A DNA stretch of 64,000 bases from Candidatus Saccharimonadales bacterium (GCA_035758565.1 DASTXL010000001.1:139242-203241); one strand, 5' to 3'; counted from the first letter of the stretch, positions 1,825 through 39,341 are shown. Notes: generated by a model not told the origin, from the sequence alone. Made by a program: numbers and translations.

Positions 1825-2226
1825 CTACGCCGTCGCCGGCAGCGCGATGCTTGTCTGCTTGGGACGAGTCGAGAGGAACACCTTCCTCTCGAGATACATC
1901 CTGTCGGCGAGTTCCATCGCTGGCTGCTCGATGTTGCCCCAGGCGTTGAGCTCGTTGACCTCGAGCGCGAACTGCGTCTTGCTCAAGGCGAGTCTCTTGA
2001 CCGACTGGTTGGCGAACAGCGTCGCGATGAACTCGCGCACGTAGCTGTCGAGCTCCTCGAGCCGAATCGGTGCGCCACCGCAGGTCAGCTCGAGCTTGCC
2101 AGAGCCGGTGCGCTGAACGACGATCTCGTCCTTCTTGAAGTGGAAGTGCCCGACGACGGACCTCCGCAGCCCGTACCAGCGAGTGAAGTCGTCCACGCGC
2201 TCGAGCGGCATGCAGTGCTTAGACAC
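1825..2226 (-). CDS. Hypothetical protein (133 aa), GC-rich codon usage
   Basis: GTG start with a G-rich SD-like run about 6 nt upstream. Soluble-looking protein with no motif I recognise. Confidence 0.5.
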   Translation of the reverse strand: MSKHCMPLERVDDFTRWYGLRRSVVGHFHFKKDEIVVQRTGSGKLELTCGGAPIRLEELDSYVREFIATLFANQSVKRLALSKTQFALEVNELNAWGNIEQPAMELADRMYLERKVFLSTRPKQTSIALPATA

Positions 2227-2385
2227 AGCCTACCCCCCTTCTTAAGATGTTTGACTACTCTGCCAGTCATAAAGAAGCCCACTTGCCTAAAGTTAGCCCT
2301 ATGACGCATTAAATCTTAGCACCGTTCAACCAGAAATATAACAGTGATATTTACCACGCTTGTTTGTTATAATTTAAAGAAGATT

Positions 2386-2676
2386 ATGAGCAAACTTACC
2401 CGAGAAGACGTCTTGAAATTGGCGCATTTAAGCAGGCTGAAGTTATCTGAAGAAGAAATAGAAAAGTTTCGTAGCGAGTTATCAGGAATACTTAGCTACG
2501 TTGAACAATTAGATGAAGTGGACGTTGCGGACTTAGCGCCAACCTATCAAGTAACGGGTTTGAAGAACGTCACTAGAAAAGACGAAGTCAAAGATTACGG
2601 CTATAAAATTGAAACATTGTTGTCTAATGCTCCGGCCATTCAAGACAATCAGTTCAAAGTAAAGAGAGTTTTATAA
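2386..2676 (+). CDS. gatC: Asp/Glu-tRNA amidotransferase subunit C
   Basis: MSKLTREDVLKLAHLSRLKLSEEEIEKF.. is typical of GatC. Lies directly upstream of gatA. Extended -10 TGtTATAAT at 2364-2372. Confidence 0.88.
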   Translation: MSKLTREDVLKLAHLSRLKLSEEEIEKFRSELSGILSYVEQLDEVDVADLAPTYQVTGLKNVTRKDEVKDYGYKIETLLSNAPAIQDNQFKVKRVL

Positions 2677-2677
2677 A

Positions 2678-4093
2678 ATGCCAAATTCTTGGCCAAAAAT
2701 AGCGGATATAGTCGCGTCTGTGCAAAAAGGCGAAACTAAAGCTATCGATCTAATTGAAAAATCACTAACTGCCATTAAAGAAAACGAAGAGTATAAAGCC
2801 ATAATCAGTACACTAGAAGACCGCGCACGCGAACGCGCGCACGAGATAGATCATATGGTAGCCAGCGGCAAAAACCCAGGCAAACTGGCAGGTGTACCAT
2901 TTATTGCCAAGGATAATTTCTTGGTATTCGGCGGTAAAACTACAGCTGCAAGTAATATTCTTAAACCCTTTGAAGCACCATACCAGGCTACGGCGATCAA
3001 TAAACTAGAGGCCGAAGGCGCCATTTGTGTGGCTAAAGCCAACCTGGACGCTTTTGCTCACGGCAGTTCTACCGAAAACAGTGATTTCTTTACCACTTTG
3101 AATCCGCACGATAAAACCCGTGTGCCGGGCGGCAGTAGTGGCGGTTCGGCGGCGGCGGTTGTGCTCGGTATGGCGCCTTTTGCGCTCGGCACCGATACTG
3201 GCGGCTCCATTCGCTTGCCAGCCAGCTTTACCGGCAGCGTTGGCTATAAACCGACCTATGGTTTAGTCAGCCGTAGCGGTGTGATTGCCATGGCTAGCAG
3301 CACAGATGTAATCGGGCCAATTGGGAGTAACGTAGATGACGTGGCGTTGGTGCTTGATGTGATGGCTGGCAAAGACGAGCTAGATAGCACTACGATTGAT
3401 CGCCAAGATACTTATGTCGCCGGGCCAGCTAGTTTCAAGGGCAAAAAAGTTGGCGTTGTCAAAGAGTATTTTGAAGGCCTAGAAGGCGATGTTAAGCGCG
3501 TTGTAGACCAGGCTATTGAAAAGCTTCGTTCCGCAGGCGTCGAGATCAGTGAGATTAGCTTGCCAAGTTTGCCGTTGGCGCTCGCGGTTTATTATATTAT
3601 TTGTCCGGCTGAAGTTTCGTCTAATTTGGCCCGCTACGACGGCCAGCGCTACGGCTATTTTGCCGACAAAGCTAGAGATTTAAACGAAAGTTACGAGCTG
3701 GCGCGCGAAGAGGGTTTTGGCACGGAAGCAAAGCGTCGTATTATGATTGGCGCTTATGTGTTGAGCTCTGGCTATTACGACGCCTATTATAAGAAAGCGC
3801 AAACGGTGCGGACAAAAATTATCAAAGAAATGGATGAGGCGTTCGCGAAATTTGATTTTTTGGTTGGGCCGACAGCACCTATGACTGCTTTTAAAATTGG
3901 CGAAAAAACCGCTGACCCATTGCAAATGTACTTAACTGATATCATGACCGTAGCTGCCAATATTACCGGCAACCCAGCTATCAGCGTGCCGGCCGGCAAG
4001 GTTGATGGTTTGCCGGTTGGTCTGCAGATGATAGCCGACCGCCGTCATGATGCAGAATTATTATCAGCGGCAAAAGGGTTCGAGGAGCTATAG
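2678..4093 (+). CDS. gatA: Asp/Glu-tRNA amidotransferase subunit A
   Basis: Amidase signature GGSSGGSAAAV..GTDTGGSIRLPA. Confidence 0.95.
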   Translation: MPNSWPKIADIVASVQKGETKAIDLIEKSLTAIKENEEYKAIISTLEDRARERAHEIDHMVASGKNPGKLAGVPFIAKDNFLVFGGKTTAASNILKPFEAPYQATAINKLEAEGAICVAKANLDAFAHGSSTENSDFFTTLNPHDKTRVPGGSSGGSAAAVVLGMAPFALGTDTGGSIRLPASFTGSVGYKPTYGLVSRSGVIAMASSTDVIGPIGSNVDDVALVLDVMAGKDELDSTTIDRQDTYVAGPASFKGKKVGVVKEYFEGLEGDVKRVVDQAIEKLRSAGVEISEISLPSLPLALAVYYIICPAEVSSNLARYDGQRYGYFADKARDLNESYELAREEGFGTEAKRRIMIGAYVLSSGYYDAYYKKAQTVRTKIIKEMDEAFAKFDFLVGPTAPMTAFKIGEKTADPLQMYLTDIMTVAANITGNPAISVPAGKVDGLPVGLQMIADRRHDAELLSAAKGFEEL

Positions 4094-4501: not shown

Positions 4502-5929
4502 ATGAGTGATTACTTGCCGACAATCGGAATCGAAACGCACGTTCAGCTAAAGACCAAAACCAAGATGTTTTCGGCTGTGGGCAATGATGCTCGAGACGCG
4601 GCGCCAAATACTTTGATTAGCCACATTGATGTCGGTATGCCTGGCGCTTTGCCGGTTTTGAACGAAAAAGCTTTGGAGCTTGCTTGCCGAGCCGCTTTTG
4701 CACTAAATACTACTCCGCAGAAATTCTCTAAGTTTGAACGCAAGCATTATTTTTATCCGGATTTGCCCAAAGGCTATCAAATTACTCAGTATGAAAACCC
4801 AATTATTATCGGCGGCCATGTAGAATTGCCGGACGGCAAAAAGATCGGCATCACCAGGGCGCACCTGGAAGAAGATGCCGGCAAAAACACTCACCCGGCC
4901 AGTGCTGATTATAGCTTGGTGGATTTGAACCGCGCTGGTACGCCGCTGCTAGAAATTGTCAGCGAGCCGGACATTCATAGTGCCGCTGACGCTAAAGCTT
5001 ACGTACGCGAACTTTATTTACTTATGAAATATGCAGACGTTTCTGATTGCGACCTGTACCTCGGCCACATGCGTTTTGACGTGAATGTCAGCGTTAGCAA
5101 AGATCCCAGCAAACCCGGAATCCGCGCGGAAGTTAAAAACCTGAATAGTTTCCGTAGTGTAGAGGCGGCGATTGAGTACGAAATTAAAAGGCAGACTGAA
5201 CTTTTAGAAAATGGCGAAAAGGTTGTGCAGGAAACCCGCGGCTGGGACGAAGATAAGCAAGTTACAACCAGCCAGCGCAGCAAAGAAGAAGCCGAAGATT
5301 ATCGCTACATGCCCGAACCGGACATCCCCCCAACCGAACTTAGCGATGAATTCATTGAAAATATCAGAAAAGACATGCCCGATCTGCCAAGCTATTACAG
5401 AAAAACGCTGAGCGATATTGGAATTGATAAGAAAGCAACTGAAGATATTGTTGCTATTCCCGACGTAGCTAGAAATGTCGACCTTGTATATCGCTACGAT
5501 GGCAAGTTGAATGCAAAATTCGGCAGACGGATAGCGTTCTTGCTTTTACGCCCACAACCCGAAGAGCCGGACAATACTGACGCAAAAGTCGACATAAGCA
5601 TCAAGAACCTTGTTAAATTATGCCAGATGGCAGAAGACGGACTATTAAGCTCTACGGCCACTAAGGAAATTTTCGATGAGATGCTTATCTCTAAAAATGA
5701 TCCTGAGCTAATTGCAAAAGAAAAGAAACTAATTCAGGTTTCGGATGAAGGGGCGATTGAAGAAATTGTTAAACAAGTCATTGCCGAAAACGAAAAAGCC
5801 GCCAATGATGTTAAGAATGGCGAAATGAAAGCTATCAGCTTTTTGGTCGGCCAGGTCATGGCAAAATCCAAAGGCCAAGCCAATCCGGGTTTAGCTCAGG
5901 CAATAATCAAAAAACAACTGGGGGTATAA
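4502..5929 (+). CDS. gatB: Asp/Glu-tRNA amidotransferase subunit B
   Basis: IGIETHVQL..RKHYFYPDLPKGYQITQ..HLEEDAGK motifs and a C-terminal GatB/YqeY tail. Confidence 0.95.
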   Translation: MSDYLPTIGIETHVQLKTKTKMFSAVGNDARDAAPNTLISHIDVGMPGALPVLNEKALELACRAAFALNTTPQKFSKFERKHYFYPDLPKGYQITQYENPIIIGGHVELPDGKKIGITRAHLEEDAGKNTHPASADYSLVDLNRAGTPLLEIVSEPDIHSAADAKAYVRELYLLMKYADVSDCDLYLGHMRFDVNVSVSKDPSKPGIRAEVKNLNSFRSVEAAIEYEIKRQTELLENGEKVVQETRGWDEDKQVTTSQRSKEEAEDYRYMPEPDIPPTELSDEFIENIRKDMPDLPSYYRKTLSDIGIDKKATEDIVAIPDVARNVDLVYRYDGKLNAKFGRRIAFLLLRPQPEEPDNTDAKVDISIKNLVKLCQMAEDGLLSSTATKEIFDEMLISKNDPELIAKEKKLIQVSDEGAIEEIVKQVIAENEKAANDVKNGEMKAISFLVGQVMAKSKGQANPGLAQAIIKKQLGV

Positions 5930-5930
5930 A

Positions 5931-6824
5931 ATGGCGCAAAAACCAATTAGAAAAGCGGTTATCGCAGCCGCCGGCTTCGGCACACGTTTTTTGCCGCAGA
6001 CCAAAGCGATGCCCAAAGAAATGCTGCCAGTCGTAGATAAACCGATCATTCAGTATGTAGTCGAAGAACTCGTAAACGCCGGAATCGAAGACATCATAGT
6101 CGTTACCGGCTATTCCAAACGGGCGATTGAAGATCATTTTGATAATCCCAGCCAAGACCTTGTTAGCAATCTTAAAAACGGCGGCAAAGACGAGCTTTTA
6201 GATCAAATCAAAAAAATTGCCAACCTCGCGAACTTTGTTTATGTGCGCCAAAAAGGTCCATACGGCAATGCTACGCCGCTTTTGAATGCTGAACATTTGA
6301 TTGGCGGCGAACCTTTTATTTATACATGGGGTGACGATTTCATATTGTCCAGCCCGCCGAGATTTTCGCAATTAGTGAGGGCCTACGATCAGACCAAAGC
6401 TTCGGCAATTTTTGCTTGTTTGCCGGCCAAACACGAAGAAGACTATAAACGCTACGCCTTTGTGGGCGGCAGCGAGAGGCAGGGCCAGTTGTTGCGGATG
6501 GAAAGAATCATAGAAAAACCCGGTAGCCGGGAGTCCTCGCCATCCAATTTAGCCAGTCTGAGCGGTTACGTTTTTGATTCAAAAATCTTTGACTACATAA
6601 AACAGGATTTAGAGAAGCTGGAGCCCAAGCATGAATTAATTTTTCAGCCGTCGGTGCAGCGTATGATGGATGATGGTCTGGACGTTTATGCATGCGAAAT
6701 CGACGGCACGTATTACGACACCGGCAATAAGCTCGAGTACCTTAAAACGGTTGTCGACTTTGCGCTAATGCACGATGATATCAAAGATGACTTTGCCGAC
6801 TATTTGCGCCACTTGACACTGTAG
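5931..6824 (+). CDS. galU: UTP-glucose-1-phosphate uridylyltransferase
   Basis: AAGFGTRFLPQTKAMPKEMLPVVDKPIIQYVVEE N-terminal signature. Confidence 0.9.
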   Translation: MAQKPIRKAVIAAAGFGTRFLPQTKAMPKEMLPVVDKPIIQYVVEELVNAGIEDIIVVTGYSKRAIEDHFDNPSQDLVSNLKNGGKDELLDQIKKIANLANFVYVRQKGPYGNATPLLNAEHLIGGEPFIYTWGDDFILSSPPRFSQLVRAYDQTKASAIFACLPAKHEEDYKRYAFVGGSERQGQLLRMERIIEKPGSRESSPSNLASLSGYVFDSKIFDYIKQDLEKLEPKHELIFQPSVQRMMDDGLDVYACEIDGTYYDTGNKLEYLKTVVDFALMHDDIKDDFADYLRHLTL

Positions 6825-7711: not shown

Positions 7712-10700
7712 ATGTCCGAGAGGGTAAAACTAAAACCATCTGATTATGTGCATTTGCACAATCACACTCAATATTCTTTGCTCGATGGGTTAACCAAAGT
7801 ACCGGCTTTGATTGACCGAGTCAAAGAAATGGGCATGGAAGCCGTTGCTATGACCGACCACGGCACCATGAGCGGCGTAATTGAGTTTTATAAAGCCGCG
7901 AATGCGGGTGAGATTAAGCCAATCATTGGCATGGAAGCCTATGTGGCGCCGCGAACTTATAAAGACAAAGATCCAGGCAAAGATCGCCAGTATTTTCACC
8001 TAACATTGCTGGCTATGAATAACGAAGGCTATCAAAACCTAATGCGACTATCGAGTATAGCCAACCTGGAAGGCTTTTATTATAAGCCAAGAATCGACCA
8101 TGACTTAATAGAGAAATATAACGCAGGCTTAATTGTCTTATCTGGCTGCATTGGCGGTGAAGTCAGCGATGCCCTTCGTGAGGGCCAGTACGACCAAGCT
8201 AAAAAAACCGCCGAATGGTATAAAAAAGTTTTTGGCGATCGTTATTACATTGAGATCATGGACCATGGCCATCCGGAGCATCCGTCGAGCTGGGCCGAGC
8301 AAGACAGGGTTAACAACGACTTATTAAAGCTCTCCAAAGAATTAGATATTCCGGCGGTTCTAACATGCGACGCTCACTATTTAAATCACGAAGACCAGGA
8401 AGCGCACGAGATTTTGCTCTGTGTTCAAACGGGCGCTTTCTTAACCGACGAGAACCGGTTTAGTCTTAAAGACTTTCATTTGCATGTTGCCGACCCTAAA
8501 GAAATTATCGAACGTTGGGAAAAAATCGATCCCAACTTAATAACCAACAGCAAAAAAATTGCCGATCGTTGCCGGGTTGATATTGAGCTCGGCGAAATAC
8601 TAATTCCAAAGTTCCCAACCCCCAACGGCGAAAGCGAAAAACAAATGCTGGATAAGTTGATTTGGCAAGGTCTTGCCTGGCGCTATGGCGGCAAAACTCG
8701 AGATGAAGCAGTTAAACTTTCGATCACGCAGGCCAAAAAATTATTAAGCCCAGAAATTATCGAGCGCGCCGAATACGAAATGGGCGTGGTAGATAGCATG
8801 GGCTTCAACGGATATTTCCTGATCGTTCAGGATTTTATCAACTGGGGCAAAGACCGCGGCATCGTGTTTGGTCCGGGACGGGGCAGTGCGGCTGGCTCGA
8901 TAATGGCTTATGGTTTAAGAATTACTGAGCTAAATCCGTTGGAATTTGATTTGCTGTTCGAGCGTTTTCTGAATCCTGACCGCATTAGCATGCCGGATAT
9001 GGACATTGATATTCAGGATACTAGGCGCGAAGAAGTCATTGAATATTGCGTAGACAAATACGGCCGCGAGCAGGTAGCCAACATTGTAACTTTCGGCCGA
9101 ATGGCCGCTCGCAACTCGGTGCGAGATGTGGCCCGCGTGCTTCAGGTCCCCTATGCGGAAGCTGATCGTTTAGCCAAAATGATTCCGCCGCCAATCCAGG
9201 GCCGTCACATTCCACTGACCACATCGCTCACGGAAAATTCAGACCTAAAAACCGAGAACGAAAAAAACGAGCAATCAGCAAGAGTCTTCGACCTGGCTAC
9301 CCGACTAGAAGGCACTATTAGAAGTCACGGCGTACACGCTGCGGGCGTGGTTATCGCTCCGGAAGACATAGTTAAATACACGCCGCTTGAAGTAGCCCAG
9401 AAAGGTTCTCTTGCCACTCAGTATTCAATGGGTCCAATCGAGGAGCTCGGCCTACTTAAAATGGATTTTTTGGGTCTATCTAACCTTACAATTATTAAGA
9501 ACGCTCTTCGAATCGTTAAAAAAGTTTATGGCAAAGATATCGATATTTTGTCTATTCCAATGGACGATCCAAAAACTTTTAAACTATTCCAGAACGGTGA
9601 TACCACCGGTGTATTCCAGTTTGAATCTGCTGGCATGAAGCGTTACCTAAGGCAGCTAAAGCCTACTGTTTTTGAGGATTTGGTAGCCATGAATGCTCTA
9701 TATCGTCCTGGGCCAATGCAGTGGATCGAAGATTTTATATCACGCAAAACCGGCAAAAAAGAAATTGAATACATGCATCCTGCCATGGAGCCGGCGCTTA
9801 AAAGCACCTACGGCGTGATCGTTTACCAAGAACAAGTCATGCAAATATCTAAAGAAATGTGCGGTTTTACCGGTGGCCAAGCCGACACAATGCGCAAAGC
9901 TATCGGTAAAAAGATTCCGGAAGTCATGAAAAAGCTCAAAAAAGACTTTATCGAGGGCGGTGTTAAAACCTCTGGTGCCGAGCGCAAATTAATGGAAAGG
10001 TTCTGGGGTCAGCTAGAAGATTTTGCGGCTTACTGTTTTAATAAATCCCACGCCGCTTGCTACGCCTTGATCGCCTACCAAACCGCCTATCTTAAATCGC
10101 ATTATCCGGCAGCTTTCATGGCGGCCTTAATGACTAGCGACTACGACGATACCGATCGTTTAGCCATAGAAATCACAGAGTGCAAACACATGGGCATTAA
10201 TGTTCTGCCGCCAGATATTAATGAATCTTTCCACGAATTTGCCGTGGTTAAGGCCAAAGAACAAGTTCGTTTTGGCTTAGACGCAATTAAGAACGTTGGC
10301 CACGGCGCCGTAGAAGAAATTTTGCGGGCTCGCGAGGCCAATGGCGGTCGTTTTAATTCGCTGGAAGATTTTTGCAAGCATGTTAACGCGCGGATTTGTA
10401 ATCGCAAAGCTTTGGAAAGTTTAGTTAAAGCTGGCGCGTTTGATAGTTTTGGCGACCGCGGCGTGCTTTATAACAACCTAGAAAATATCTTGAATTTATC
10501 TAACAAGATTCAAAAAGATGCTGCCAGTGGTCAGGTGGATTTGTTTGGCGAGTCGGATGTGGTCAGTGAAATGGCTCTGAAGCTAACGCTCGATACATCG
10601 GGGCCTGTTGCTTCGGCCCACGAACAACTTGGTTGGGAGCGCGAACTGCTTGGGCTTTATTTGAGTCGCAACCCGCTGGAGGCTTATCAGGAGATTCTCG

Positions 10701-11338
10701 AGTCAAAGGCGACGCCCGTCAAAGAAATATTCGAAGGCATGGACGGACTGAGCGTGACAGTGGGCGGCTTTGTGAGCGATATACGAGAAATTACTACCAA
10801 AAACGGGTCCAAGATGGCCTTTGTTAAACTCGAAGACATCAGCGGCGAAATCGAACTCGTGCTGTTTCCTAAAACTTATTTAAAGAGCGTTGATATATGG
10901 CAACGCGATAAAGTTATTCTGGCTCGCGGCAAGGTTGGCGGCGGCCGAGCTTCCGACCGTGGATCAGAAGTAAAAATCCTGGTTGATGATGCTGTGGCTT
11001 TGTCGCCAGAAGATGCGGCGGCTTTTGCCAAGGACAAAAAATCCTTCAACTATAATCTCAAAGACAAGCCTGTAAGAGCGGCGCGGACTGGCTCCGATCC
11101 GGTGGTAATCAGCCGCCAACGTCTCTATTTGCGATTAGAAGACAGCAAGAATCAGGAACTTTTGATGTCGCTTAAAGAAAAGCTGGATGGCCACAAAGGC
11201 CGAACCGAAGTCGTGCTGGTCACCGGCCCGCAAGATAACAAACAAATTATAAAATTACCGCAAACCATTGATATTAACGAGCAATGTTTGCGCGACCTGG
11301 CCGCCATCTTCGGCTCTACGAACGTAGTGGTCCGATAA
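7712..11338 (+). CDS. dnaE: DNA polymerase III alpha subunit
   Basis: 1208 aa. N-terminal PHP domain (HLHNHTQYSLLDG) with polymerase core and OB-fold regions. Confidence 0.96.
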   Translation: MSERVKLKPSDYVHLHNHTQYSLLDGLTKVPALIDRVKEMGMEAVAMTDHGTMSGVIEFYKAANAGEIKPIIGMEAYVAPRTYKDKDPGKDRQYFHLTLLAMNNEGYQNLMRLSSIANLEGFYYKPRIDHDLIEKYNAGLIVLSGCIGGEVSDALREGQYDQAKKTAEWYKKVFGDRYYIEIMDHGHPEHPSSWAEQDRVNNDLLKLSKELDIPAVLTCDAHYLNHEDQEAHEILLCVQTGAFLTDENRFSLKDFHLHVADPKEIIERWEKIDPNLITNSKKIADRCRVDIELGEILIPKFPTPNGESEKQMLDKLIWQGLAWRYGGKTRDEAVKLSITQAKKLLSPEIIERAEYEMGVVDSMGFNGYFLIVQDFINWGKDRGIVFGPGRGSAAGSIMAYGLRITELNPLEFDLLFERFLNPDRISMPDMDIDIQDTRREEVIEYCVDKYGREQVANIVTFGRMAARNSVRDVARVLQVPYAEADRLAKMIPPPIQGRHIPLTTSLTENSDLKTENEKNEQSARVFDLATRLEGTIRSHGVHAAGVVIAPEDIVKYTPLEVAQKGSLATQYSMGPIEELGLLKMDFLGLSNLTIIKNALRIVKKVYGKDIDILSIPMDDPKTFKLFQNGDTTGVFQFESAGMKRYLRQLKPTVFEDLVAMNALYRPGPMQWIEDFISRKTGKKEIEYMHPAMEPALKSTYGVIVYQEQVMQISKEMCGFTGGQADTMRKAIGKKIPEVMKKLKKDFIEGGVKTSGAERKLMERFWGQLEDFAAYCFNKSHAACYALIAYQTAYLKSHYPAAFMAALMTSDYDDTDRLAIEITECKHMGINVLPPDINESFHEFAVVKAKEQVRFGLDAIKNVGHGAVEEILRAREANGGRFNSLEDFCKHVNARICNRKALESLVKAGAFDSFGDRGVLYNNLENILNLSNKIQKDAASGQVDLFGESDVVSEMALKLTLDTSGPVASAHEQLGWERELLGLYLSRNPLEAYQEILESKATPVKEIFEGMDGLSVTVGGFVSDIREITTKNGSKMAFVKLEDISGEIELVLFPKTYLKSVDIWQRDKVILARGKVGGGRASDRGSEVKILVDDAVALSPEDAAAFAKDKKSFNYNLKDKPVRAARTGSDPVVISRQRLYLRLEDSKNQELLMSLKEKLDGHKGRTEVVLVTGPQDNKQIIKLPQTIDINEQCLRDLAAIFGSTNVVVR

Positions 11339-11473
11339 CCTTTTTTCTTAAGAACTAGGTTTTATTTTGGCCCAAAAGCAGTGCAGCATGTTCTTTTCCA
11401 AAGAACCAAATATTACGTTACTTTGGTTCGGCCAAAGTAACCAAAACCACCGGGCTACGTTTGAAGCTGGATT

Positions 11474-11589
11474 GAAGATAAACTAAATTGGCAGGCGCCG
11501 CAACAACGGCAAGCGGCCTCACCTCCTATTCTTCAAAGAATAGGCTCGGCACAGTTGCGGCTTTAATCCTGCCAATTTAGTTTATCTTC
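11474..11589. repeat. 116-nt hairpin with perfect 22-bp terminal arms
   Basis: GAAGATAAACTAAATTGGCAGG (11474-11495) is the exact reverse complement of 11568-11589. Inner 8-bp stems at 11497-11504/11554-11561 and 11525-11532/11537-11544. Confidence 0.7.
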
Positions 11590-11727
11590 ATCTGTTCAAG
11601 CCGATGCCCGGGCCCACCGCTGCATCGATAGCATAACGTTTAGCTTGGAGCTGTGCAGCTAATCCAGGCTTGAGGAAACTGATGAGGATTGCAGCTAAGG
11701 TCGGGCATGTGGAGACGACTTGCCCAA

Positions 11728-11834
11728 GTGATGTAAAACAGTCTGTCTTTAGAGTCTTGAAGTGTTTGACGAACAAATTTGCCAGTCGGCAATTTTGCGA
11801 GGAGTTCTTCAAGCAAAGACTGGTTTTACATCAC
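11728..11834. repeat. 107-nt hairpin with 17-bp arms (one bulge)
   Basis: GTGATGTAAAAC-AGTCT (11728-11744) pairs with AGACTGGTTTTACATCAC (11817-11834). Confidence 0.6.
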
Positions 11835-11950
11835 TTGCAAGTTCGGCGGAACCTAGCCCGAGAGTTTTGGCGCCACCTTTTCGGCAAAAGGTGGTGAAAT
11901 GTTTGTTACTTTACCAAAGTAGATATGAGGGCTGGTTCTGGCTAGCCATA

Positions 11951-12847
11951 CTATTTGATAAACCCGGCGGTTTGGTTCAGCAGGAACACCAGACAAGCAA
12001 TTATTAGCAGGCAAAAATCAGTTGCCGGATGGCGCAAAATATAACGCTCGCCCTGAGCAGCCGCGGTAGCAAAATAGCGGCGGTGCTTTTCGATAAATAT
12101 ACCCAAAGCAGCCAATCCCCCAAAGAGCAATATTACCGGCAGCCACGGCGACAAAGAACTGTTAAAGGCGGCAGCGACACGGGTAGTAGAGGCTCCCAGA
12201 GTCTGTCCTGTAAAATTAGTCTTTGGATTAACGAACACGCTGGCCGGTTGGGCGTAAAAAGCCACGACTATTGTCATAGGTCCGCCACCGGCAGCTGTGT
12301 AATTTGGATTATTAGCGTAGCCAAAGCCAACCTGGCTGTAGTTTTTATCAAGAATGTTTTCGCGGTGGTGAGGGCTGGCCATCCAAGCGTTCACTACAGC
12401 ATCATCGTCGTTAAAGCCGGCAGCTAAGTTTTCGCCCATGCTTTGGTAAACATAGCCGGTGGCCGTCACGAAACTCCAAGGAGCGACTCCTTGCGGTGTG
12501 TTATGACTCCAGTAATCGCGCTTAGCCATATCGTCGGCTTTGGCCTGAGCGGCCTTGGTAAGTTCGTCGTTAATTTTAAGGTCCGACTCACCGGCTTTCT
12601 CGCGCTGAAGATTAGTATCCTTTAATAATTGATCTGAGTTTTTGCTAGTCTGGTAGCCCAGAACCTTGCCGGTTAAATGATGCAACGGCACGGTTTGGAT
12701 AGCCAAGCTGAGCAGCAGGGCGGTGGCAATAAAAACAGGAATAAACGGCCAATAGACTTTTTCGAAAGCTTTGTGGTCTATGCCCTTGGGCTTGGGCGTA
12801 GCGGTTTTTCGAGTGTCGTATTTAGGATGAGTTTTGATTTTGGCCAT
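11951..12847 (-). CDS. CAP/SCP (YkwD-like) domain protein with N- and C-terminal TM segments
   Basis: DYWSHNTPQG..GENLAAGF..AVVNAWMASPHHRENIL..VGFGYA are CAP-domain motifs. Confidence 0.8.
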   Translation of the reverse strand: MAKIKTHPKYDTRKTATPKPKGIDHKAFEKVYWPFIPVFIATALLLSLAIQTVPLHHLTGKVLGYQTSKNSDQLLKDTNLQREKAGESDLKINDELTKAAQAKADDMAKRDYWSHNTPQGVAPWSFVTATGYVYQSMGENLAAGFNDDDAVVNAWMASPHHRENILDKNYSQVGFGYANNPNYTAAGGGPMTIVVAFYAQPASVFVNPKTNFTGQTLGASTTRVAAAFNSSLSPWLPVILLFGGLAALGIFIEKHRRYFATAAAQGERYILRHPATDFCLLIIACLVFLLNQTAGFIK

Positions 12848-12920
12848 CTTAGCTAGATTTTAAAATATTAAACTGTTTATGGCAATCGATCCCAAAACTT
12901 GCAAATTACTTTGTAGGTTT

Positions 12921-13580
12921 TGGGATCGAGGAGACGCCGTAGAGGCGTCTCCGTGCTCGATCCTTCGTTCATGCTCAGGCGCCGTAGTCGGCGATCGTCG
13001 CCTTGGCGTCGGCCATCGCGGTGTACTGCTCACCCGGCTTGTTCGTGTTGCAGAACCAGCGCGGGCGTTCCTCTTGGCCCTTCAGCCACCCCTCCCGCGT
13101 CTCGCGGGTGAGATAGTTGAACGTGACGGCGGCGTGACCAGCTTCCATTGCGTCCTGTAGCTCCGACTGGCCGCTGGCACCCGCGATGGTGCCATCGACC
13201 TTGGTCGAGAAGCCGTAGGTGAAGTCGCCATCGCCTGACTGGGTGAGGTCGACGTAGACGCCGAAGCCTGCCGGCTGTCCGTGGTCGCGGTGGTAGACCG
13301 CCTTGGCGATCGCATTCGGGACAAACCGCTCGCCCTCTGGGCCGATGGCGATCGTCGCCAGCAGCGTGTCGCTGCTGGGTTACCAGAGCGGCGCCATCGG
13401 GTTCAGGAACGCCAGGCCGAGGCTGTCGCGGCTGTACTTGCGGTCGGCGAAGAGCCTCTCCACGTGCTCGGCGCGCAGGACGGAGATGCGATCGACGATT
13501 GCGATCAGCATCTCGTTGGGCACCGTGTGGCTCCATGGATTCTGGAACACACGGACTTGCCGTGCCAACATGTGCACTCT
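12921..13580. other. GC-rich island C
   Basis: 38/60 G+C at 13021-13080 against 25/60 at 13621-13680 (hand counts). Confidence 0.7.
12975..13577 (-). pseudogene. GC-rich gene of unknown function interrupted by an in-frame TAA
   Basis: A single frame with GC3-rich codons runs from the ATG at 13577 (SD AAGGAG 7 nt upstream) to the TGA at 12975-12977. It contains a TAA at 13380-13382 (..NPMAPLW*PSSDTLLATIAIGPEGERF..). Confidence 0.6.
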
Positions 13581-13620
13581 CCTTGTCGAAGGATCGAAAC
13601 GTGCATATTTTACAATAAAA

Positions 13621-17106: not shown

Positions 17107-17131
17107 GTTTGCTTTTATTACAAAAACATTG

Positions 17132-17160
17132 TTGACAATGTTTATTAATTTTGTTATTAT
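17132..17160 (+). promoter_or_regulatory. Strong sigma70-type promoter
   Basis: TTGACA (17132-17137), a 17-nt spacer, and an extended -10 TGtTATTAT (17152-17160). Confidence 0.65.
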
Positions 17161-17166
17161 ATCGCC

Positions 17167-17760
17167 AACGTCGTGACTTCCGGAGAGCCACGTCTACCCG
17201 GTAGGGTCTAATCTCCGGCGGGTTTGGGAGCCTGATCACCATCAAGGGAGCCAAAACCTGGCCATAACGGAAGATTCCCACTGGCAAGACTTCGGTCTAC
17301 CAGATCTCCGTTCCTGTTAAAGTCGCGAGCTCAGCGCGCAAACATCAGGGTCCTTCGGGATGAGATGCGCCTTCGGGCACTGTCTGAGACGGGTCTTGAG
17401 GAAGACTCGCATTCGCTAGTGCGATATCGAGGGCATCGGCGCGGTGAACCGCAGTCGATGGTCGCACACAGTTCCCGCTGTCCTCTAGTCGTTTTACGGC
17501 TAGGCAGGAACTATTCCTCCTACAAAGCCGGGTTCCACCGAGTGGCGTCGCCTGAGGGCGGCCCGGACGTCCAAGACGTCACTCAACGTGTTCGGGTCGG
17601 TCGGCCTCCAAAGCTGATCGCACAAAAAAGCCGGGGCAAAGGTCCCTCCGGACTCCGCAAGAGAGATCCGGGAAAACCTAGGAGAGGATTGTAGCGACCC
17701 GACGCTGCGAACCTACCTCCCCCCGCTTGGTCTTCGGACCGAGCGGGGCTCTTTTCTTTT
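17167..17760 (+). ncRNA. Unclassified large structured RNA (about 590 nt)
   Basis: Bounded by the promoter above and the terminator at 17721-17760. GC-rich relative to its flanks. Many local stems and four C(UUCG)G tetraloops (17290-17295, 17353-17358, 17371-17376, 17732-17737), plus the stem CATCG..GCGG-tgaa-CCGC..CGATG (17434-17460). The only ORF is an Arg-rich shadow. Confidence 0.6.
17721..17760 (+). terminator. Rho-independent terminator
   Basis: CCCCGCTTGGTC-ttcg-GACCGAGCGGGG (12 bp including one G-U pair) followed by CTCTTTTCTTTT. Confidence 0.8.
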
Positions 17761-17776
17761 AGGCTATAATTCAAAT

Positions 17777-39256: not shown

Positions 39257-39341
39257 GGGGATGTGGTGAAATTGGTATACACGCGTGCCTTAGGAGCACG
39301 TGCCGCGAGGCGTGAAGGTTCAAGTCCTTTCATCCCCACCA
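39257..39341 (+). tRNA. tRNA-Leu (anticodon UAG), CCA encoded
   Basis: Acceptor stem GGGGATG/CATCCCC, 3-bp D stem, anticodon stem CGTGC/GCACG with loop cTTAGga. Long variable arm, T arm GAAGG-ttcaagt-CCTTT, and discriminator A followed by CCA. Confidence 0.9.

Follow-up and report, generated by a model that had tools for sequence, protein, structure and literature searches.

An insertion between dnaE and a convergent CAP-domain gene

The stretch of DNA analyzed here (64 kb, referred to throughout as the window) belongs to a metagenome-assembled genome of Candidatus Saccharimonadales (candidate phyla radiation). It carries dnaE, whose product is identical to a protein of an NCBI MAG, and, convergent with it, a gene for a CAP-domain membrane protein. 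The stop codons of these two genes are separated by a gap of 612 bases (11339-11950), most of which is a 533-base insertion (11390-11922) that contains no genes and has inverted-repeat ends and long hairpins. The order of its parts is alpha end, element 1, spacer, element 2 and beta end, and their positions are given in Table 1 together with those of the neighboring features.

Table 1. Positions of the features at the dnaE / CAP-gene junction of the window; L010 is the second locus described in the text.
Feature	Position	Strand	Description
dnaE	7712-11338	+	upstream flank of the gap
dnaE-side intergenic remainder	11339-11389	.	51 nt; not part of the element (L010 alpha-end similarity begins exactly at 11390)
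Alpha end (terminal inverted repeat)	11390-11461	+	small hairpin, hairpin A, box
Alpha small hairpin	11390-11406		GTTCTTT-tcc-AAAGAAC
Hairpin A	11417-11441		GTTACTTTGG-ttcgg-CCAAAGTAAC; flagged terminator-like on the - strand
Alpha box	11441-11461		CCAAAACCACCGGGCTACGTT
Element 1	11473-11590	.	118 nt; 23-bp perfect stem with nested 8-bp and 9-bp stems
Middle spacer	11591-11717	.	weakly structured; without homologue
Element 2	11718-11842	.	~125 nt; hairpin, conserved module adjoining the beta end
Beta end (terminal inverted repeat)	11850-11922	-	inverted copy of the alpha module: box, hairpin B, small hairpin
Beta box	11850-11870		AACCTAGCCCGAGAGTTTTGG
Hairpin B	11871-11896		flagged terminator-like on the + strand
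Beta small hairpin	11907-11921		TACTTT-acc-AAAGTA
CAP-side intergenic remainder	11923-11950	.	small hairpin GGCTGGT-tctg-GCTAGCC (11930-11947); outside the L010-homologous region
CAP-domain membrane protein gene	11951-12847	-	other flank, convergent with dnaE
GC-rich cassette (not part of the gap)	12884-13620	-	65% GC, GC3 0.87; ~198-aa conserved protein ORF

We compared this junction with that of the nearest relatives, whose DnaE proteins are 73-78% identical to that of the window. Where the relatives could be fetched past the junction on long enough contigs, the gene order GatCAB / YtxH-like / dnaE / CAP / SpoU / T2SSE / L19 is kept, and dnaE and the CAP gene are separated by 4 bp (L004), 0 bp (L006), 80 bp (L007) and 24 bp (L008), versus 612 bp in the window. 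Because four syntenic relatives have only 0-80 bp at this position, the gap is a lineage-specific insertion between two intact convergent genes. The C-terminal residues of the window DnaE are the same as those of L004, and the alignment of the CAP protein reaches within 2 residues of its end. The 51 nt and 28 nt that lie outside the element add up to 79 nt, in line with the 0-80-nt gaps of the relatives. At the same junction in L005 (9634-9901) we observed an unrelated hairpin-dense gap of at least 268 nt with a fold z-score of -6.1, which suggests that the site tolerates or attracts such DNA, and structured non-coding DNA may have landed at this junction repeatedly.

A preliminary description, made by reading the sequence, had called the gap the largest non-coding stretch of the window. 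This is incorrect, as the region between rplS and a short-chain dehydrogenase gene (17107-17776) comprises 670 nt without a plausible gene. This second region is a candidate for an unannotated structured RNA of ~590 nt, with a near-consensus promoter (TTGACA-17-TATTAT, ~17134-17162), a strong intrinsic terminator (CCCCGCTTGGTCTTCGGACCGAGCGGGG followed by a T run, ~17723-17760), several CUUCGG-type hairpin loops that we read from the sequence, and a fold z-score of -3.2. It matched no Rfam family (the best was Atu_C7, at 24.8 bits versus a cutoff of 45 and over the terminator part only), and it is missing beside rplS in the relatives. Lineage-specific insertions also occur elsewhere in the window: gatB is followed by an NTP-transferase gene, and rplS by a dehydrogenase gene and a 185-aa gene. 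Between uvrB and gatC, at ~700-2210 (L003 2990-4500), there are three small ORFs of unknown function on the - strand (96, 132 and 128 aa), with a 15-bp perfect hairpin in the same region (1780-1815); this trio is absent in L004 and L005, where uvrB and gatC are ~40-60 bp apart, and thus represents a further insertion of this kind.

The ORFs of 74-81 aa that can be found in the gap had been considered spurious, and our results support this view. When codon usage was tested with 31 window genes as the training set, they scored like out-of-frame sequence, below ~98-100% of real 75-codon gene chunks, and they had no significant match in Pfam, PHROG or NCBIfam. The best candidate, an ORF of 75 aa with a GAGG motif before an internal ATG that ends at hairpin B, had no match among 1.84 billion protein representatives. 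For annotation, the element accounts for the odd gap and cautions against calling the 74-81-aa ORFs. A decayed gene or a local duplication was rejected, as neither blastn nor tblastx showed similarity of the gap to other parts of the window or to the loci of the relatives, and BLAST comparison of the gap with phage and plasmid collections returned only short chance matches of 26-35 nt. Searches for known RNAs were also negative for the gap. In a comparison with Rfam, which the preliminary description had advised, families including 6S, ROOL, GOLLD, OLE and group II intron domains gave no gap match when the whole window was searched at the gathering threshold, and when the gap was searched at E-values up to 10 they gave only snoRNA, miRNA and sRNA noise of 12-22 bits, versus cutoffs of 30-100. 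The sole result of a tRNA/tmRNA scan was a tRNA-Leu at 39257. A pattern scan for promoters in the gap found none, and a relaxed scan reached 8 of 12 matches at best. The possibility that the gap is a replication site, which had also been raised, was not borne out: GC skew is positive on either side of the gap without a sign change and falls below zero only at ~14-18 kb and 44-58 kb, and most genes on either side are on the + strand.

Hairpins, inverted ends and a second copy

The hairpins of the gap are real and far beyond chance. Fold z-scores of the whole gap were -6.8 on the + strand and -7.9 on the - strand, and those of element 1 were -10.8 and -10.5. The arms of element 1, previously given as 22 bp and perfect, proved to be 23 nt long and 100% complementary (11473-11495 / 11568-11590), whereas perfect 23-bp inverted pairs are expected by chance only ~3e-7 times in 64 kb; 100 shuffles yielded no match to the arm. 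Two nested stems are indeed present inside element 1, as described, but they differ in size, with 8 bp for GCCGCAAC/GTTGCGGC and 9 bp for CCTATTCTT/AAGAATAGG. Element 2 is likewise a hairpin (z of -5.6 on the + strand and -6.6 on the - strand), though its perfect arms are 15 nt (11725-11739 / 11823-11837) rather than the 17 bp first reported, with the stem extending with bulges over the full element. The long arms of the two elements have no second occurrence in the 64-kb window and none in shuffled sequence, and both folds are equally stable on the two strands, as expected of DNA palindromes. The stretch between them (11594-11716) is not significantly structured (z of -1.7 / -0.6), and the spacer shows no similarity to element 1, element 2 or L010. 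We also considered the gap as a tandem array of three homologous ~120-nt hairpin units and rejected this, as TRF found no repeat, the alignments were noise and the middle unit was not significantly structured.

The two ends of the insertion are imperfect inverted repeats of ~72 nt, each with a small hairpin, a 10-bp hairpin and a conserved box, and the two boxes form a 21-nt long-range inverted repeat with 81% identity. Each end has a strong hairpin followed by a T-rich tract in the outward direction. A stem noted earlier at 11874-11893 was recovered at 11873-11894, and a repeat at 11398-11446 that had been proposed to form two mutually exclusive hairpins is present, with both pairings found; a terminator/antiterminator switch at this repeat was rejected, since the alternative pairing is not conserved in L010.

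L010 is a locus of the Saccharibacteria MAG GCA_016234585.1 ("Candidatus Saccharibacteria bacterium"), which was fetched via its member of a GC-rich gene family that is also represented next to the gap in the window. It contains an element of 1,307 nt (4632-5938) located between rpsT and an unrelated 563-aa gene, a site that is not orthologous to that of the window, and both types of end as well as the element 2 hairpin are present there. Window positions 11390-11456 match L010 5871-5938, downstream of the GC-rich gene, with 81% identity over 69 nt (E-value 1e-9), and the terminal stretch of the alpha end is identical at 23 of 23 nt. When the gap was reverse-complemented, ~190 nt comprising the beta end and box through element 2 matched the upstream flank of the same gene (~4632-4821). 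This beta/element 2 alignment had a local score of 72 and that of the alpha end on the downstream flank a score of 67, while shuffled sequences scored 19.5 +/- 2.2. In L010 the GC-rich gene, which encodes a 198-aa protein of unknown fold, is thus bounded by the ends of a 1.3-kb element and flanked by a 59-nt inverted repeat with 92% identity (4656-4714 / 5857-5915). As cargo the L010 element carries the GC-rich cassette, along with a different 105-nt hairpin (z -6.2) at the place taken by element 1 in the window.

The four ends (alpha and beta of the window and of L010) have 73% column identity in an alignment, and an nhmmer profile made from them gave E-values of 1e-17 to 1e-21 at exactly these four sites (1.4e-17 for the window alpha end and 2.5e-18 for the window beta end), with no further site in ~110 kb of related loci or elsewhere in the 64-kb window. 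Secondary structure is also preserved. Three of the 10 pairs of the end hairpin are compensatory (double substitutions) between the alpha ends of the window and L010, and the apical hairpin of element 2 is kept between the two copies via 2 compensatory pairs. The hairpin of the L010 alpha end was, like those of the window, flagged as terminator-like facing outward. Just beyond the beta end, at a distance of 6-7 nt, each of the two copies has a short hairpin (L010 4608-4627; window 11930-11947), which may hint at a target preference, albeit from two cases only. L010 also has a near-consensus promoter facing rpsT (TTGACA-17-TATAGT, 4591-4619), 13 nt from the beta end.

The most conspicuous feature of the gap, element 1, is not accounted for by this homology, having no homologue in L010, the rest of the window or the loci of the relatives. 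Its arm had no exact match in JGI metagenomes or viral contigs, and among 185,579 genomes (a set that excludes the source MAG) it had one 22-nt match, within a 1,009-aa ORF of a Richelia MAG, which we judged to be chance because a 20-mer match is expected about once by chance. Element 1 therefore appears to be private to this genome, and could be either a secondary palindromic insertion or a palindrome perfected locally.

Origin and possible role of the insertion

We consider it reasonably probable that 11390-11922 is a non-autonomous, MITE-like or BOX-like relic whose outward-facing, terminator-like hairpins now probably end both convergent transcripts. A mobile origin is suggested by the presence of homologous ends at non-orthologous sites in two genomes, by the empty sites in relatives, and by the existence of a short gene-less form along with a longer form that carries cargo. 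Several properties of the insertion are those of MITEs: its alpha and beta ends are terminal inverted repeats made of inverted copies of one module, it is small (533 nt) and contains no transposase gene, with all of its ORFs non-coding and without homologues, and it is polymorphic, with empty sites in four relatives and a second copy elsewhere. A MITE-like element was one of three options put forward in the preliminary description, along with structured sRNAs and a replication or recombination site, and it is the best supported of the three, given the insertion, the long imperfect terminal inverted repeats and the recurrence of the ends and element 2. The unit is nonetheless the whole 533 nt rather than the 116-nt element 1 then proposed, and we found neither a target-site duplication nor, within the 64-kb window, multiple copies.

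No target-site duplication was seen at either copy, with the boundaries set where the homology of the two copies ends. The window flanks (...GCAGCAT / ATATGAG...) have at most "AT" in common and the L010 flanks (...GATGAGC / TTTTGAA...) have nothing in common. There is one copy in the 64-kb window and there are two in all sequence searched. Exact end and arm motifs were not present in the genome collection described above or in metagenome and viral collections; in viral contigs the alpha/beta end and element 2 arm motifs gave no match, or 16-mer chance matches that did not extend. No transposase or recombinase gene was found in or beside either copy (no transposase within 5 kb at L010), nor did we find an autonomous relative with the same ends and a transposase, the larger L010 form carrying only the 198-aa protein.

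According to the model that we favor, the insertion would be a derivative or relic, devoid of genes, of a Saccharibacteria mobile element with terminal inverted repeats at its boundaries, and it would have inserted at the tail-to-tail junction of dnaE and the CAP gene. It was presumably moved in trans by an enzyme encoded outside it, for which the end hairpins may have been the recognition feature, and today it is probably mainly passive. The hairpin and outward T-rich tract of each end are consistent with dnaE transcripts stopping at hairpin B (11871-11896) and CAP-gene transcripts at hairpin A (11441-11417), a prediction drawn from pattern matches. Both mRNAs would then have overlapping, highly structured 3′ tails of ~480 nt, in which the perfect long stems of elements 1 and 2 could be natural targets of double-strand RNases, as with Correia and ERIC elements.

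The feature most likely represents a new family within a known class of elements, a class undescribed in this phylum. Among known systems, the Correia (NEMIS) elements of Neisseria are bacterial MITEs with 26-bp repeats and a TA target duplication that occur in hundreds of copies, often between convergent genes, where they supply terminator or processing sites, and that are present or absent between related genomes. The gap element resembles them in being small (100-600 nt), gene-less and intergenic, with terminal inverted repeats that would form a long hairpin in transcripts, but its repeats are ~72 nt long and imperfect and each hold two hairpins, no duplication was seen, and one copy per genome is known. 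BOX elements of Streptococcus pneumoniae (boxA-boxB(n)-boxC) have modules of 45-59 nt and more than 100 copies. Like the gap element, they combine two distinct end modules, complementary in part, with a middle that varies; they are predicted to fold strongly, encode no transposase and show no clear duplication of the target. In contrast to BOX, the middle of the gap element is formed by unrelated long hairpins and that of the L010 element by a whole gene cassette, and there is no sequence similarity between them. Elements 1 and 2, as imperfect palindromes of 118-125 nt in a probably transcribed intergenic region, have the size and shape of an ERIC element (127 nt) or a REP doublet; however, these families are multicopy, and REPINs depend on a RAYT (Y1 HUH) transposase, while element 1 is single-copy in everything searched. 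Finally, hairpins A and B are similar to Rho-independent bidirectional terminators, as GC-containing stems with T-rich tracts between convergent genes. They differ in that each is found at the end of the element more distant from the gene whose transcript it would stop, that they belong to a repeated module present elsewhere, and that ~390 nt of additional hairpin DNA lies between them.

Alternatively, the gap may contain one or more structured non-coding RNA genes, for example a + strand RNA of ~190-250 nt made of element 2, the box and hairpin B as terminator, or a multi-branched RNA of ~430 nt closed by the 11441-11461 / 11850-11870 helix. The gap does fold very stably, the segment formed by element 2, the box and the terminator-like hairpin is common to two genomes with compensatory pairs, and hairpin B, with a T-rich tract after it, contains a G-U pair that would become an A-C mismatch on the opposite strand. 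We nevertheless regard this explanation as rather unlikely. The promoter and Rfam searches described above were negative, the long stems are perfect, without wobble pairs, and equally stable on both strands, so that strand asymmetry is lacking, and the insertion is missing in four close relatives. Moreover, L010 has more than 1 kb between the two halves, including a protein gene that has a promoter of its own, and the unit therefore cannot be one RNA.

An explanation that we find somewhat less plausible still is that the gap is intergenic DNA that expanded locally and became palindromic by template switching during replication, without ever being mobile, and that the similarity to L010 reflects a common type of terminator. 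The single copy, the gradual fading of the element 1 palindrome past its 23-bp core without a sharp end, the small indels between the arms of element 2 and the unrelated hairpin-dense gap of L005 are all consistent with such an origin. Yet convergence would not be expected to produce ~260 nt of collinear homology to a non-orthologous locus, including 23 of 23 terminal bases and ends in the same order and orientation, and the origin of the 533 nt would be left unexplained.

A third possibility, to which we assign a low probability, is that alpha and beta serve as targets of a site-specific recombinase, through which the intervening DNA is swapped or inverted, an activity that could explain both the different cargo in two genomes and the lack of a target-site duplication. 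The ends are conserved while the interiors are unrelated (element 1 and spacer versus the GC-rich gene and 105-nt hairpin), and the GC-rich cassette is inside the element in L010 and 1 kb away from it in the window. Against this, no recombinase or invertase gene adjoins either copy, inversion of a unit with a whole gene and its promoter would have no effect, and there are two instances only. The arms also lack, on reading of the sequence, the integron attC core sites R'' (RYYYAAC) and R' (GTTRRRY): those of element 1 end in GATAAAC / GTTTATC and those of element 2 contain GTAAAAC / GTTTTAC, neither of which fits the consensus, and the element 1 stem is perfect and has no extrahelical bases, whereas attC is an imperfect palindrome with extrahelical bases.

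The window derives from short-read metagenome assembly, and artefacts of assembly are known to include perfect inverted repeats, but we consider an inverted chimeric join made by the assembler very improbable. Over 1,012 nt that span the gap, a Logan assembly of SRR25158471 shows 100% identity, and since the window is longer than the Logan contig, the two are different assemblies. In addition, the hairpins lie within the contig and enclose unique loops of 72-83 nt, and the ends and element 2 have homologues in an independent genome.

Genomes of the candidate phyla radiation are small and tightly packed, and their mobile and repetitive non-coding DNA is little known; our literature search on this subject found nothing relevant. 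A family of repeats whose ends carry hairpins would be useful for tracking genome plasticity in Saccharibacteria, and it would also be a candidate natural terminator and insulator module. Its position beside or around a compositionally foreign cassette may also provide a handle on gene acquisition by these epibionts.

The GC-rich cassette and its relation to the element

In the window the CAP gene lies between the gap and the GC-rich cassette, which is 1 kb from the gap, while in L010 the cassette is inside the element bounded by alpha and beta; in the relatives the spacing between the CAP and SpoU genes is only 21-145 bp. The cassette is ~735 nt long and includes its own promoter region, the 198-aa ORF and 3′ hairpins. 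The GC content of the ORF is maintained at 59-66%, and its GC3 at 0.72-0.88, in genomes with 46-51% GC; in the window copy the ORF is broken by an in-frame TAA at 13380-13382, where L010 has CAG. Copies of the protein are 53-79% identical and have many invariant Asp/His residues, with HRDHG and DGDF motifs. The window copy has a weak Pfam match below the cutoff (DUF4454, E-value 7e-4), and the family is without a precomputed Pfam domain. A PDB sequence search gave no match, and a confident AlphaFold model, with a pLDDT of 89.4, had no fold match in Foldseek, where the best E-values were 0.26 (PDB) and 0.51 (viral).

We found the cassette at a different genomic site in each of seven contexts (window, L009, L010, L058, L059/L060, L062). 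As the alpha and beta ends are missing from five of these, the cassette appears to move on its own. The other two contexts are within 1.5 kb of the only two alpha/beta elements seen. One speculative reading, which we think improbable, is that the alpha/beta unit and the GC-rich gene together represent an undescribed Saccharibacteria mobile system, in which hairpin ends would be recognized without target duplication, the protein would act in mobility or maintenance, and the gap would be a cargo-less form.

In L058 an IS1595-family insertion sequence (2076-3924; DDE_Tnp_IS1595, 26-bp inverted repeats with 88% identity) lies 77 nt from the cassette. We rejected a link between the two, since this sequence is beside and not around the cassette and its ends are unrelated to alpha and beta. 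Downstream of the GC-rich ORF of the window there are two hairpins (12886-12929 and 12930-12952). Both mismatches of the 20-bp hairpin after the ORF are G-T/T-G on the + strand and A-C on the - strand, and this hairpin would therefore be more stable antisense to the preceding GC-rich gene. The motif TCGATCC / GGATCGA is present at both cassette ends.
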